Assembly: GCF_003018235.1 (NCBI RefSeq)
Contig: NZ_CP027437.1
Origin: Escherichia coli
GTDB lineage: Bacteria > Pseudomonadota > Gammaproteobacteria > Enterobacterales > Enterobacteriaceae
DNA length: 64,000 bases
Strand: one strand, 5' to 3'
Shown here: positions 55,051 through 64,000 of the stretch, piece after piece
Layout: each line of letters opens with the position of its first letter
How positions within the stretch are numbered: the first letter of the stretch is position 1
Position numbers and translations under genes: made by a program
The notes under the pieces: model-generated
The model's database searches: none
What the model was told of the DNA's origin: nothing
The model's input: only the letters and a program-made list of their open reading frames with translations

Positions 55051-55163
55051 CAACAAAAAACGCGCCCGAAGGTGCTTTAATGAGGAGTGCCGCTTCTTTA
55101 TGTCTGTGAATTATCAACAACTTACGGGGAAACATAACCGCAAGAAGCGACAAGAAATTACAA

Positions 55164-56153
55164 CTATATGGACAGATTATGGACGCTTTCAGCCAGTGGA
55201 TTAAAGCTTATAGCATCCTGTAAAAAATCCGGTGCAAAATGCGCATATGTCATTGTTTGCTGGATAGTTGAATGTCCAAGAATCCGTTGAAGTGTTACTA
55301 TATTTCCTCCATTCATCATAAAGTGTGTTGCAAACGTATGCCGCATAACATGAGTTGCCTGTCCTTTGGGCAGATCTGGTTTTACTTCCTTTAGTGCTCG
55401 TCGAAAGTTTGTGTAATTAACATTAAACAATGCACCAGATTGTTTTATCTTGATGAGCTTTATAACTTCTTCGGATATAGGTATGGCGCGGGGTTTATTG
55501 GTTTTTGTCTGATTAAACATAACTCTGTTTCCCACAATATTTTCTCCCCGTAGTTTTGTTGCCTCTCCCCACCTTGCTCCTGTCGAAAGACACAGAATCG
55601 CTATTCGTTTGTTATCTCCAGTAAGATGATTGAGCAAGCGATCAATCTCTTCGTTTGATAAAAACGACATATCTGATGGTACAATCCTCAACTTCCTCAG
55701 ACCATGTAGCGGATTTGCATGGTGGAATTCTTCAGCATTAATCAGCACTGAAAACATGGCTGAAAGTACGCAGAGATCCCTGTTTACCGTGTTGGGTGTC
55801 AGTCCTGCACTGAGTTTGTTTGCACGATAACTCAGAAGGAACTTTCTGGTTACACCGTTGGCTCTGGGATCTCCCATTTCTCTGATCACTTTATTCAGCC
55901 TTTGCAGGTATGTCTCACCATAAGGCTGATTTTGCCCGTCGAGCATCCACCACATTTCGGCAAGTTCGGAAAGATGGCGTTTGTCTGCGGGTTTTTCCAG
56001 CCATGGTTTGTTATGCATGTTCTGAAGAACATATTTTTCATAATCCTGCGCTTTCGACTTCAGGGTGAAAATTTTTCGAATCCGCTTCCCTTCCGCACCC
56101 TGAGGTCTGACATCAACCTGATAACGTCCGTCTTTGAGCTGCTTAATCGACAT
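55164..56153 (-). CDS. int: Tyrosine recombinase, phage P2 Int family
   Basis: ORF 55164..56168; N-terminus MSIKQLKDGRYQVDVRP and C-terminal catalytic region ...HVMRHTFATHFMMNGGNIVTLQRILGHSTIQQTMTYAHF recognised as P2-like Int. Confidence 0.9.
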   Translation of the reverse strand: MSIKQLKDGRYQVDVRPQGAEGKRIRKIFTLKSKAQDYEKYVLQNMHNKPWLEKPADKRHLSELAEMWWMLDGQNQPYGETYLQRLNKVIREMGDPRANGVTRKFLLSYRANKLSAGLTPNTVNRDLCVLSAMFSVLINAEEFHHANPLHGLRKLRIVPSDMSFLSNEEIDRLLNHLTGDNKRIAILCLSTGARWGEATKLRGENIVGNRVMFNQTKTNKPRAIPISEEVIKLIKIKQSGALFNVNYTNFRRALKEVKPDLPKGQATHVMRHTFATHFMMNGGNIVTLQRILGHSTIQQTMTYAHFAPDFLQDAISFNPLAESVHNLSI

Positions 56154-56243
56154 GATTAGCACCTCCAACGGTATTTTGTTGCTTTAATACATTTCTGTAC
56201 CTTGTAATGTATTCAATATGCAGGCCAAACCAGCATCCTGGTG

Positions 56244-56567
56244 TTATTGGTGTGATTTTGAGTTTGTTGTAGTTGAATCCTGAGCGGCCTCCGATTCTCC
56301 AGAGCCATCAAGAGAGAGAGCCGGGGCGATCTGCCCGGCCTGAGGGAAGGTTTTGCCGTGCAGGAGCCACATTGTGTATTTTTCGAACAGTGAGCACTGT
56401 AATACACGGAGGGCGATATCTGCCCGGGCAGGTTGATGTCCTGTTTCATAACTCTTAACAGAACCAAGAGCTATACCTGTTATCTCGCTAAACTTTTGCT
56501 GGGTTATTTTTTCAGCACGTCTGATCGCTCGTAGTTTTTGAGCAAAATCCATTGACAAGGTATTCAT
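56244..56567 (-). CDS. Immunity repressor, P2 C-like (HTH)
   Basis: ORF 56244..56651 trimmed to MNTLSMDF with AAGGA RBS; C-terminal YTMWLLHGKTFPQAGQIAPAL resembles P2 C. Confidence 0.75.
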   Translation of the reverse strand: MNTLSMDFAQKLRAIRRAEKITQQKFSEITGIALGSVKSYETGHQPARADIALRVLQCSLFEKYTMWLLHGKTFPQAGQIAPALSLDGSGESEAAQDSTTTNSKSHQ

Positions 56568-56668
56568 ATAACGACTATCCTTCTTTTGGTTGTTGATTAA
56601 CGACGTTTGCAATAGCTGACTATAGTCGACAGTAGCCAGCAAACGCACCAACGATGGAGGATAACAAA

Positions 56669-57127
56669 ATGCAGGAAACTATTGCAGAGGGGGGGATATT
56701 CAACGCTGGTGGGGATGACACGCAGTTACAGGAAAAGGAAGTCAGAAATAAATTATCACTGAGACTTGATGGACCTGTAGCGGATTTAGTTTTTCTGGAT
56801 AAAGGAGCAGCATACGTTGGGCTGACCAGGAAAGCGCTTGCAACAGCTTTACGTAGAGGCGAAATGCCTGGACATAAGAAAAGAAAAAATCCTGAAGATG
56901 AAACATCGCGTGGAGTGTGGATTTTTAACGTCAAGGCATGGAATGAACTTGCTGATATTTTGCCTGAAATTGAGCCACCAGAATGGCATCACTGGAAAGA
57001 TTACTGGTTATACAACCGAAACACTCGGAAATTTCAAAAGATTGATAAACAAGATTGTACACAGATTAATGGTAAACGTGTTTACAGGCCGCGTCAGAGC
57101 AGACTGGAAAAAGCACGTCAGTCATGA
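56669..57127 (+). CDS. Cox-like excisionase/transcriptional regulator (divergent from repressor)
   Basis: ORF 56654..57127; internal ATG with GGAGGA RBS; HTH-like segment AYVGLTRKALATALRRGEMP; position equivalent to P2 cox. Confidence 0.55.
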   Translation: MQETIAEGGIFNAGGDDTQLQEKEVRNKLSLRLDGPVADLVFLDKGAAYVGLTRKALATALRRGEMPGHKKRKNPEDETSRGVWIFNVKAWNELADILPEIEPPEWHHWKDYWLYNRNTRKFQKIDKQDCTQINGKRVYRPRQSRLEKARQS

Positions 57128-57290
57128 AACGGTATTTATTAGTAAGCAACAAGAAAGTGAATTAAACTCATCGGCAATAACTCGTTATTAAATTGTCATA
57201 CTGTCTGAAACTATTTCCTTCTATTACTGATGTGTGAGGCACGGAAAGGGAATTCCGTTTTTTTAGTGGTGCGATGAGAAAATAACAGAG

Positions 57291-62284: not shown

Positions 62285-62722
62285 TTGCCGGAGGCGCTTA
62301 TGGCAAAAGTATTTACACAAGAAGAGCGGGAAAAAATTAAAGGGCAGGTTGTTGAGCTAGTACGCCGGAGTGGGCGCGAGACGTTACGGCAACTGGAAGC
62401 CAAGACAGGTGTGACAAGATATCTGATGAGCGTTCTCGCCAGAGAGCTGGTTGCCAGTGGCGATGTATACAACTCTGGTTACGGGTTATTCCCCTCTGAA
62501 CAGGCTCGTAAGGACTGGCAAAACGCCCGTAAAAAACTATCTAGGGCAAAGGTAAAAAAAACGGTTGTGGTTGATCCTGACCTTATCTGGTCATTACCTG
62601 ATGGAGAAATACGCCGCTACGACAGGAGCCTGAATATAATCTGTCGCGAGTGCCGGAAGAGCGAAGCTATGCAGCGTGTACCGGCTTTCTATCAGGGCAA
62701 TTTTCAGGAGGCGGTACTGTGA
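62285..62722 (+). CDS. Hypothetical winged-helix protein (145 aa)
   Basis: ORF abuts previous stop; wH-like LRQLEAKTGVTRYLMSVLARELVASGDV. Confidence 0.45.
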   Translation: MPEALMAKVFTQEEREKIKGQVVELVRRSGRETLRQLEAKTGVTRYLMSVLARELVASGDVYNSGYGLFPSEQARKDWQNARKKLSRAKVKKTVVVDPDLIWSLPDGEIRRYDRSLNIICRECRKSEAMQRVPAFYQGNFQEAVL

Positions 62723-63136
62723 GTGAAATTAGCTATCAGGCTTCAATTACCGCTGGCATTCGCATCAAAGGAGAGGAGCATGGAAATAAAACCAGAAGAT
62801 GAGTTAAGCAATATCGTTTTATTCCCGGTAAAAGAGGATGACCCTCGTAATCGGGTTAATTTTCTTTATGAGCCATCGGAAAGACCATATTGCCATCACG
62901 CTTCTGTCCGGGTTGACGAAAAAGAGCGTCAGGTCCGCTGTAAAATCTGCGGCGCAGTTGTGGAGCCATTTGACTGGATGCTCTCTGTGGCGAAAAGAGA
63001 AACCAGACTGGCAGATGATGTAAGGCTCTTGCGCCAGGAGGAACGGGAAAGGCGAAAAAATATAGAAAAGCTAATTCAGATTGAGCGTAACGCGAAAGCG
63101 CGGATACGCAGGGTGACAAAATACAGAACTGAATAA
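62723..63136 (+). CDS. Hypothetical protein with CHH...CxxC motif and basic coiled-coil tail (true start possibly MEIKPED)
   Basis: 137-aa ORF abutting previous stop. Confidence 0.45.
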   Translation: MKLAIRLQLPLAFASKERSMEIKPEDELSNIVLFPVKEDDPRNRVNFLYEPSERPYCHHASVRVDEKERQVRCKICGAVVEPFDWMLSVAKRETRLADDVRLLRQEERERRKNIEKLIQIERNAKARIRRVTKYRTE

Positions 63137-63187
63137 TTAAATTCAGCACTGCAAATAAAAATTAAATCCTTAACTTGAGGTATATCT

Positions 63188-63400
63188 ATGTTAAATACAC
63201 AGAAAACAATTAACGCGGAAAAATATAACGAGTGGGTGAGAAAATTCTCTGAGCAGATTTTTAAAATTACTGGCGACGAGAATGTGGCAAAAAATGAATT
63301 AGAGCCGTGGACACCTGAAGGAACCGACCCAAATTATTGTTGGTGGGAGGTTGATCCGGTTGATGCTGCAAATGAAGCCATGAGTTACTACAACGATTAA
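63188..63400 (+). CDS. Hypothetical small acidic protein (70 aa)
   Basis: ORF with GAGG RBS. Confidence 0.4.
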   Translation: MLNTQKTINAEKYNEWVRKFSEQIFKITGDENVAKNELEPWTPEGTDPNYCWWEVDPVDAANEAMSYYND

Positions 63401-63433
63401 TGCCGGAAGACTACCCGAAAGAGAGGTAATGAA

Positions 63434-64000
63434 AAATGGCTGAATTAACCAAAGAATGGCTAAAAAACATGATTACCGGAATTGAGTCGGTAATAGACGA
63501 TAAATCGTTTGTATGTGATGAAATAGTATTCAAAATAGGTGAGGTTAAAAACATACTTACCGCATTTAAAGTCGCGCTGGCATCGCTGGAAGCAGAGCCG
63601 GTGGCTGAGATTAGAGCGCACTACCCATTAGGGATTAACGGCGGTAAACAAAAGTTCGTCCAGGCCATTGGAGATCTTCCTGACTTTGGCGGACATCTGT
63701 ACGCCGCTCCGCCAGCGCCTGTAGTGCCGGATGAGGGGCGCGACAAGTTTGAAGCAATTATCAGGTTTCATGTCGGTGATGAAAACCATGAAACATTATT
63801 GCTGCGGGCCAACGAAGGGATGAATTACCGGGACCCAAATGTTGATTTTGCATGGATATTCTGGAAGTCCAGTCGTGAGCATCTGCTTCGGAATAATGAC
63901 GGCAGTCTGCCAGAATCGGGTCATCAGGTACGCGGATTAACACTGCTGGTTAAGCGACTGGCCAGTTCATTAAAAAGCGTCAATAAATCCAGCAAGCTGC
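63434..64000 (+). CDS. Hypothetical protein, 5' partial view (at least 189 aa; runs off window end)
   Basis: Open frame from ATG with GAGAGG RBS (MAELTKEWLKNMITGIESV...), no stop before window end; not in ORF track because incomplete. Confidence 0.45.

Follow-up and report, generated by a model that had tools for sequence, protein, structure and literature searches.

The window analysed here is a 64,000-nt stretch of Escherichia coli contig NZ_CP027437.1, and its subject is the element arm at its right-hand end, from 55.06 to 64.0 kb, which begins with a phage P2-type lysogeny module and continues into an early operon. To the left of this arm, 51.4-54.9 kb is E. coli chromosome (aroF-tyrA, and pheA with its Phe leader), and the adjacency to pheL-pheA reported by a first-pass annotation of this DNA was confirmed. 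The features at the junction and in the lysogeny module are as follows.

54874-54999: Phe_leader (pheL), directly left of the prophage
55059-55072: attL core AACGCGCCCGAAGG, left half of the raiA terminator hairpin and boundary of the prophage
55164-56153, minus strand: P2-type tyrosine integrase (Int), 329 amino acids (aa), PHROG 1 at 3e-75
56244-56567, minus strand: P2 C-type immunity repressor (C) with a helix-turn-helix (HTH), 107 aa, PHROG 147
56568-56668: C/Cox divergent switch region, with a candidate Pe promoter (TTAACG-18-TATAGT) found by promoter scan at 56597-56626
56669-57127, plus strand: Cox-family excisionase/regulator, 152 aa, divergent from C
57241-57264, plus strand: intrinsic-terminator-like hairpin and T-run after cox

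At least 80% of the interval from 54.9 to 64.0 kb is carried by two of 5,426 complete E. coli genomes (H1, 98.7% identity; H2, 99.5%), and three more complete E. coli genomes (H3-H5) carry a version that is ~86% identical; all are at the same site. The attL 14-mer recurs with one mismatch, as AACGCACCCGAAGG, at the raiA-proximal end of the H2 prophage, and the core shared at the junction, AACGC(G/A)CCCGAAGG, is the raiA terminator. Integration linked to a tRNA was considered and rejected: there is no tRNA near the junction, and att lies in the raiA terminator.

The lysogeny module has the P2 layout, with int beside att and transcribed leftward together with C, and cox diverging rightward, as had been noted from the sequence. 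The proposed similarity to P2 also held up in alignment, both by BLAST and against the P2 C structures. Int is 54.5% identical to P2 Int over its full length (E 7e-124) and 38% identical to 186 Int; C is 33.7% identical to P2 C, and the P2 C structures 2XCJ and 2L49 were matched gap-free at 2.5e-16. Cox was assigned by Pfam Phage_Cox (PF10743, 2e-6) and by PHROG 23196 (1.5e-55). Among deposited phages, the closest for all three proteins are P2-like myophages of the P88 type, with identities of 72% for Int, 54% for C and 55% for Cox. By sequence comparison, the left arm is thus placed as a descendant of the P88 branch of P2-like phages. By analogy with P2 Pe/Pc, the candidate Pe would act as the Cox-side promoter of this switch.

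Downstream of cox, 57.5-58.0 kb is G+C-rich, and the equivalent stretch is unannotated in H2. We found the following features there.

57564-57593, plus strand: promoter-like TTGAAT-N15-TGG-TATTTT, read by eye, conserved in H3 and placed to start the leader (analogue of PLE)
57600-57677, plus strand: IsrK/seqA-like leader, Rfam isrK at 49 bits (E 2e-8), holding target site A and an intrinsic terminator
57640-57652, plus strand: target site A, TGTCAACGG, inside the IsrK-like leader
57656-57677, plus strand: intrinsic terminator of the leader
57788-57875, plus strand: C4/CI-type immunity RNA, Rfam RF01695 at 74.2 bits against a gathering score of 45
57829-57840, plus strand: loop 2 of the C4/CI RNA, TTTCCGTTGGCA
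57909-57925, plus strand: target site C (equivalent of seqC), TGTCAACGGAGGCTGCC, covering the GGAGG Shine-Dalgarno (SD) sequence of ε1, which starts at 57929
57929-58186, plus strand: ε1, of the P4 epsilon-type 'derepression protein' family, 85 aa, Pfam Derepression PF25738 at 4e-8

IsrK and C4 are structural homologues of P4 seqA and the P4 CI RNA (Barquist et al. 2013, PMC3632133; Hershko-Shalev et al. 2016, PMC4825925). The leader of the window aligns with the P4 seqA region and its terminator, and the C4 RNA with the 70 nt that follow it is 76.5% identical to the P4 cI immunity-RNA region, including seqC. The predicted duplex between the C4 RNA and site C spans 19 bp (-36.4 kcal/mol) and lies over the ε1 SD. 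The C-terminus of ε1 is 34% identical to P4 ε, and its orthologue in H3 is named 'derepression protein' by the Prokaryotic Genome Annotation Pipeline (PGAP). We therefore see at this position the fold and sequence of a C4/CI RNA, a complementary target upstream, a second target over the ribosome-binding site (RBS) of the first gene, and co-variation of loop and targets as described below. Judged on these features, the ~0.4 kb that had been read as coding is a P4-type RNA-immunity cassette heading the early operon.

The 194-aa open reading frame (ORF) at 57540-58124, which the first-pass annotation took as a gene and which matches PHROG 6928 ('transcriptional repressor'), was accordingly rejected as a protein gene, since it lies on top of the RNA cassette and is the counterpart of the historical 'cI/ash' coding sequence (CDS) of P4. 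It may have an eta-like role, being translated only from upstream transcripts. ORFs lying over RNA cassettes in the same way, at L003 22026-22385 and L007 14630-14992, are called 'ash family', 'Icd-like (pseudo)' or PHROG 'transcriptional repressor'; such calls are probably annotation artefacts that go back to the P4 'cI/ash' CDS. This exposes a routine mis-annotation, in which 'ash', 'Icd-like' and 'cI' CDSs are drawn over RNAs while ε-like ORFs in common P2-like prophages go unannotated.

The specificity of a P4-type cassette can be read from loop 2 and its two targets, and the four cassettes compared here were as follows.

P4: loop 2 TATCCTGTGAAG; site A ATTCACAGG; site C ATTCACAGG
Window: loop 2 TTTCCGTTGGCA; site A TGTCAACGG (57640); site C TGTCAACGGAGGCTGCC (57909-57925)
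H3, ~86-87% identical to the window overall: loop 2 TTTCTGGTAGCG; site A GTTACCAG; site C CTACCAGG
H2, second cassette: loop ATCCTCTGTTCT; site A AGAACAGAG; site C GAACAGAGG, over the SD of ε2

Within each of the four, loop, site A and site C are matched, and in a cross table of duplexes the cognate RNA-target pairs were the most stable. We extended this comparison to 104 cassettes from IMG/VR with 48 distinct loops, scoring complements of at least 7 nt. The complement of a loop was found upstream in its own cassette for 40 of the 48 loops and downstream, at a fixed distance, for 39, compared to ~5% for mismatched pairs. At the sequence level, such three-way co-variation argues strongly for a functional cassette whose immunity specificity is set by loop 2.

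In relatives, this design occurs more than once. In H2, a second cassette (isrK at 68 bits, C4 at 80 bits; L001 30157-30354) occupies a 494-bp gap before ε2 and the replicase gene A, and ε2 likewise belongs to Pfam Derepression PF25738. The block of second cassette and ε2 (L001 30157-30641) lies ~0.65-1.1 kb past the equivalent of the window end and is conserved in all relatives. Both cassettes are kept in all five relatives from IMG/VR (L130-L134), with matched loops and sites directly before ATGGCTAC... (ε1) or ATGGCAAACCG... (ε2). Furthermore, a third cassette, complete with promoter, leader, terminator, C4-like RNA and site C, stands in tandem before ε1 in H1 (L003 22092-22372) and duplicates the first 79 nt of ε1; this suggests that cassettes are exchanged by recombination at the conserved GGAGGCTGCC...ATGGCTACAA junction. 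L131 also has three cassettes.

Such tandem stacking, together with the fast diversification of specificity, is what might be expected of an arms race, and a role in conflict was proposed for lambdoid prophages by Barquist et al. 2013 (PMC3632133). The C4-type RNA would then serve mainly against other elements, shutting off P4-like satellites or related P2-type phages in which its target sites also occur. We consider this improbable as the main function, given that each loop fits its own leader site and its own ε RBS site at a fixed distance, which is the self-regulatory design of P4, and no satellite with a matching target was identified.

Cassettes of this kind are not confined to the hybrid lineage. 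A P88-type phage carries a block of cassette, 76-aa ε2 homologue and A, in which the ε ORF is unannotated, and a C4-ε-A block was matched in ~10% of complete E. coli genomes; the one example examined, in EC958, is a P88-type prophage. In particular, the C4-type cassette and 76-aa ε-like ORF lie before gpA at L129 16945-17321 in the P88-type phage and at L136 9001-9342 in the prophage, the ORF being unannotated in ON470623 and 'hypothetical' in EC958. No C4-type RNA was found in P2, 186 or lambda. On this distribution, the hybrid has gained an extra cassette, ε1 and lambdoid accessory genes between cox and an ε2-A block.

The protein genes of the early operon, other than ε1, are listed here.

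57300-57485, plus strand: small ORF o64, 61-64 aa, no PHROG or NCBIfam match, 44-79% identical in L130, L132 and L134
58282-58437, plus strand: small basic ORF o51, no family, 94% identical in L130
58449-59024, plus strand: DEDDh 3'-5' exonuclease (exo), 191 aa, PHROG 255 at 7e-42 and PDB 8KEL at 9e-8, conserved in L130-L133
59026-59244, plus strand: ORF o72, no family, kept between exo and the RecE-N homologue
59241-61283, plus strand: homologue of the RecE N-terminus (RecE-N), 680 aa, without the C-terminal nuclease domain
61276-61497, plus strand: winged-HTH (wHTH) protein, 73 aa, N-terminus of PHROG 630 and generic wHTH matches
61481-62284, plus strand: DUF1627-family protein, PHROG 630 at 6e-88, so named by PGAP in relatives
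62300-62722, plus strand: DUF977/LygF-like protein ('Ren-like exclusion', PHROG 142), 93% nucleotide identity to Rac-like phages
62780-63136, plus strand: PHROG 1621 protein, zinc-ribbon-like, 57% identical in L131
63188-63400, plus strand: PHROG 4659 protein, 70 aa
63436-64000, plus strand: Ead/Ea22-like gene cut by the window end, PHROG 924 and 660, orthologue at L001 28949-29578

The first-pass annotation had described this region as a tightly coupled cargo operon of about 12 genes with no nameable family apart from a DEDDh exonuclease. The exonuclease was corroborated by PHROG 255 and PDB 8KEL, and the coupling is real: genes abut or overlap from 58282 to ~62720, in an operon that is longer than that of P2 and of different make-up. 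The lack of families was overstated, as PHROG, Pfam or NCBIfam place every ORF of the early operon except o64, o51 and o72. NCBIfam gave nothing for most ORFs, the RecE N-terminal match being the exception. Judged by these matches, most ORFs of the operon correspond to lambdoid or Rac-type accessory genes and not to P2-type ones, and no homology to P2 B, the 186 CP82 exonuclease or lambda Ren was detected. In addition, the right-hand part of the operon (62.3-63.5 kb) has 85-93% nucleotide identity to Rac-like and Stx phages.

The term cargo did not survive comparison with relatives. Their conserved order runs cox, o64, RNA, ε1, (o51), exo, o72, RecE-N and further genes to DUF977, and from there via further genes to DUF4222, RNA, ε2, A, o81, DUF968, Q and lysozyme. 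This synteny holds in IMG/VR relatives in which A is ~55% identical and the operon proteins are 32-60% identical. Because gene order is kept at such distances, the early operon is best read as the ancestral operon of the lineage, not as a recent replacement or foreign cargo.

This bears on the proposal that a defence or anti-defence (exclusion) module, aiding the lysogen or countering host immunity, has taken the place of the early region. The position matches that of host-takeover genes in lambdoid phages, DUF977 falls in the PHROG labelled 'Ren-like exclusion protein', and many of the ORFs are of unassigned function. Furthermore, window 62251-63416, comprising the C-terminal part of DUF977 and the PHROG 1621 and 4659 genes, has given way to unrelated sequence throughout in H2 and in part in H1, while its flanks are 98-99.6% identical and the segment itself is 93% identical to Rac-like and Stx phages. 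This suggests that 62251-63416 is a recombination hot spot, and a swap between relatives otherwise 99% identical (62.25-63.42 kb) is typical of accessory hot spots. However, a PADLOC scan of ten ORFs of the early operon found no defence system, giving only generic domain matches to wHTH (Csa3/CARF-HTH) and DEDDh. The core set of ε1, exo, o72, RecE-N and DUF977 is syntenic at 32-60% protein identity, which argues that it is ancestral; A is retained downstream, and the region is not at a known P2 hot spot. We therefore regard a defence module as quite unlikely.

The RecE-N homologue deserves separate comment. It matches NCBIfam NF007259 over positions 4-422 of 877 (540 bits against a cutoff of 1269) and PHROG 607 over positions 5-551 of 883, i.e. 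the N-terminal two thirds of RecE. It has no PDB match and hence no RecE nuclease domain, so that the C-terminal PD-(D/E)XK nuclease of RecE is lacking; its RecT partner is lacking too, no RecT or Bet having been found by family searches of the window ORFs or in the H2 prophage map. These gaps could mean that the element is a decaying cryptic prophage whose operon consists of remnants (a RecE fragment without RecT, a partial Ea22) with no current function, and in H1, H2 or H3 PGAP does flag the RecE-like gene, an Ea22-like gene, J and T as incomplete or frameshifted. Yet the RecE-N ORF of the window is intact over 680 codons and is kept with its neighbours in five other contigs at 32-69% identity, which argues for selection, and the loop of the RNA and its targets still match. 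Decay is thus a rather doubtful account, and the nuclease-less RecE-N gene, retained with its DEDDh neighbour, does not look like a fresh pseudogene. PHROGs 2082 and 20376 match RecE-N and the DEDDh exonuclease as if fused (a RecE-N-like segment, then DEDDh). The exo-o72-RecE-N trio (58449-61283), which is 32-50% identical in distant relatives, may represent a RecE-like module for recombination or processing in which the nuclease has been swapped.

What lies beyond the window end is seen in the relatives. None of the window ORFs matches P2 B or A when compared with these proteins, as had been stated for the ~7 kb after cox. In H1, H2, H3 and L130-L134, a 186/P2-type A replicase, 30-37% identical to P2 and 186 A, lies ~1.2 kb past the window end; L130-L134 continue from A into Q and lysis genes. 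H1, H2 and H3 share the second cassette, ε2, A, DUF968, Q and lysis genes, and H1 and H2 go on to terminase, portal and capsid. In H2, the order past the equivalent of the window end is the end of the Ea22-like gene, DUF4222, a 'derepression protein', a 640-aa 'replication endonuclease', DUF968 and antiterminator Q; then a methyltransferase, tRNAs, holin, lysozyme, Rz1, lambda-type large terminase, portal and a ClpP-capsid fusion; and at the far end lambda-like tail genes, Lom, tail fibres, an ogr/Delta-like zinc finger, Hok/Gef, a TM2 protein and raiA.

When the 45.3-kb H2 prophage was mapped against reference proteins, the P2-like genes were int (54%), C (31%), A (36% to 186 A, 33% to P2 A) and ogr (32%), and the lambda-like genes were Rz (64%) and Z, U, V, G, H, M, L, K, I, J, lom and stf (47-87%), with Rz and the Z-to-J set spanning 50-87%. 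In the same map we did not find P2 B, P2 orf78-83, or lambda O, P, N, cI, cro, exo and bet; homologues of P2 Q, P, N and FI were also not found in this prophage. H2 thus has no capsid, terminase or contractile tail of P2 type, and the lambdoid Q, lysis and tail genes of the relatives occur in H2 without a CI/Cro switch, N or O/P. The ogr/Delta-like zinc-finger gene (L002 21450-22442, 32% to P2 Ogr) stands beside attR as in P2, yet Q precedes the late genes, which are lambdoid; morons encoding Hok/Gef and a TM2 domain adjoin the zinc-finger gene. The late region at L001 35381-39837 has the architecture of Shiga-toxin (Stx) phages, with Q, methyltransferase, tRNAs, STnc100 small RNA, a DUF6645/esterase-like gene, DUF1378, DUF826 and holin, and has no stx genes.

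The absence of B had been set against a cox-B-A order taken as the norm for P2-like phages. This order holds for P2 itself, but in 186 and P88-type phages cox/apl and A are separated by 3-4 kb of accessory ORFs, and a B homologue is lacking; the absence of B is therefore normal for the branch to which the hybrid belongs. The first-pass annotation had also allowed that B and A might be found just beyond 64 kb, with ORFs matching known P2-like accessory genes, and that this would speak against its interpretation. A does lie ~1.2 kb beyond in relatives, but there is no B in the prophage, and the ORFs are lambdoid or Rac-type and mostly functionally uncharacterised.

Taken together, these results indicate, with a probability that we put at about 0.8, that 55.06-64.0 kb is the attL-proximal arm of a ~45-kb mosaic temperate prophage integrated in the raiA terminator, in the raiA/pheL interval. 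The mosaic, which is rare and complete-looking, combines P2-type integration and a P2-type repressor switch with lambda-type late genes, the latter seen in relatives; the element of the window would be expected to continue in the same way. No such hybrid of a P2/P88-type arm and lambdoid late genes is present among 50,697 deposited phage records, in which the best match to A (37%) and the best match to Int (72%) are both P2-like myophages; among the 5,426 complete E. coli genomes, only about 6 have it.

The same evidence addresses the suggestion that the element is a P2-derived satellite or hitcher, which would keep int, C and cox, lack replication and structural genes of its own and be mobilised by a helper. 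Within the window there is indeed no A, B or structural gene, and the CI-type RNA and the ε-type gene are P4-like. All relatives at the same site, however, carry A, Q and lysis genes, and H2 has a full lambda-like head and tail set within its 45.3 kb. Of the genes that would mark a phage satellite, alpha, sid, psu and delta, no homologue was found in the reference-protein map of the H2 prophage, which also has virion genes; and the C4-ε block occurs in bona fide P2-like myophages. A satellite is thus very unlikely.

Several observations weigh against our interpretation. Since the window is cut at 64000, within the Ea22-like gene, what follows is deduced from relatives, and A, Q and the structural genes are visible in these only. 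Cox has no BLAST similarity to P2 Cox, nor to 186 Apl. The promoter of the cassette, called by eye, scores below the threshold of the scanner, and the isrK-like match of 49 bits is 1 bit under the Rfam gathering score of 50. According to PGAP, the H2 copies of J and T are partial or frameshifted and its RecE-like gene is partial, and individual prophage copies may be defective. Finally, the residues of P2 C that contact P4 ε are not conserved in the C repressor of the window (Thr67 is His, Ile70 is Thr), so that an interaction of ε1 with C is only an analogy; this change is compatible with a different cognate pair and proves nothing.

By analogy with P2, P4 and P1, the arrangement suggests how lysogeny could be maintained. 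C would repress the Cox-side early promoter (candidate at 56597-56626), and the cassette's own promoter would start a leader transcript, like P4 PLE. Most transcripts would stop at the leader terminator or be processed, releasing the C4/CI RNA, whose loop 2 would pair with sites A and C, thereby occluding the ε1 RBS and causing premature, Rho-dependent termination. Such an RNA gate would keep ε1 and the downstream early genes silent both in the lysogen and in a superinfecting homoimmune phage, and the second cassette would gate ε2 and A likewise. P4 ε binds and inactivates P2 C (PMC2995052). In the simplest model, ε1 and ε2 would be the phage's own anti-repressors, which lock in lytic development once the RNA gate has been passed; for ε1, the most likely target, on the P4 analogy, would be the phage's own C.

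Tentatively, and at less than even odds, we propose that this lineage of P2/lambda hybrids guards lysogeny in three layers, a P2-type repressor and two orthogonal P4-type RNAs that each gate an ε paralogue, with specificities that diversify fast (heteroimmune variants at 87% identity, tandem stacking). If this is true, the CI RNA immunity and the ε anti-repressor of P2 C that P4 turns against its helper are common to P4 and a native module of P2-like helper phages, and may have originated from the latter.

The closest known systems are the P88-type P2-like phages (Peduoviridae; vB_EcoM-705R2/P88 and the EC958 prophage), which have the same int/C/Cox arrangement at the identities given above and share with the hybrid lineage a C4-type cassette, the 76-aa ε ORF (60% to ε2), an A-type replicase and the lack of a B gene. 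They differ in having one cassette, small P2-type accessory ORFs and the structural genes of a P2-type myovirus, whereas the hybrid lineage has an extra cassette and ε1 beside cox, Rac/lambdoid accessory genes, an A that is only ~30% identical and, as known from relatives, Q, lysis genes and lambda-like heads and tails. In the early operons of 186 and P2, cox or apl is followed by non-essential accessory ORFs, including an exonuclease-like ORF in 186, and then by A; the interval from cox to A is 2-3.5 kb in P2 and 186 compared to ~8.5 kb in the hybrid lineage, and there is no homology between the accessory genes.

The P4 immunity region (PLE-seqA-CI RNA-seqC-kil/ε) has in common with the window cassette the leader hairpins, a seqA-like site, the terminator, a seqC over the RBS of the first ORF and an ε-family gene downstream. 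The specificity of loop and targets differs, however (GTCAACGG in the window, TTCACAGG in P4). Unlike that of P4, the window cassette sits in a full-size phage that also has a protein repressor, C, and its first ORF is ε-like, not kil; where P4 has the alpha primase, the hybrid lineage would gate an A-type rolling-circle replicase, and it has two orthogonal copies of the cassette.

The immI region of P1/P7 (c4-icd-ant) belongs to the same Rfam family and clan (C4, c4-a1b1) and offers a parallel in design: an antisense RNA cotranscribed with its target occludes the RBS of the first ORF and controls an anti-repressor. In contrast to immI, there are no icd or ant homologues here, the candidate anti-repressor is ε-type, and in sequence the cassette resembles P4 far more than P1. 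A further parallel is provided by IsrK-orf45-anrP of Gifsy-1 and by C4-type cassettes upstream of Rha/antirepressor genes in Stx phages, where an IsrK-like leader and a processed downstream RNA control an anti-repressor in a lambdoid prophage (PMC4825925). In Gifsy-1, however, IsrK acts positively on the translation of a long transcript (PMC4825925), and the downstream genes differ. Lastly, the early-left ('ea', recE) region of Rac and lambdoid phages shares the RecE N-terminal homology and the DUF1627, DUF977/LygF and Ea22-like genes, whereas the window operon has no RecT, no RecE nuclease domain and a separate DEDDh exonuclease, and would be transcribed from a candidate P2-type Cox-side promoter instead of a lambdoid PL under N.

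C4/IsrK cassettes have already been noted in P4, in phage-inducible chromosomal islands and in Salmonella lambdoid prophages (PMC3632133, PMC4825925). In the literature searched we found no account of tandem or dual cassettes, or of cassettes in P2-type helper phages, an absence that is not proof of novelty; nor did we find a description of a hybrid P2/lambda lineage, and the literature on 'Eru' replication types of Stx phages mentions no P2-type module. The region is ordinary as a prophage arm, while its regulatory design is testable and evolutionarily informative. What makes it interesting is that a P2/P88-type arm for lysogeny and replication is joined to a lambdoid late arm, and that P4-style RNA immunity and ε-type anti-repressors occur inside autonomous phages, in two orthogonal copies. 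It thereby offers a natural system in which to follow the evolution of RNA-immunity specificity and the exchange of regulatory modules between satellites and helpers.

Elsewhere in the window, a tRNA-Met gene (28870-28945) and the tmRNA gene ssrA (36756-37118) flank a 1214-aa ORF at 32831-36475. As ssrA is a classic integration site, another island may be present near it.

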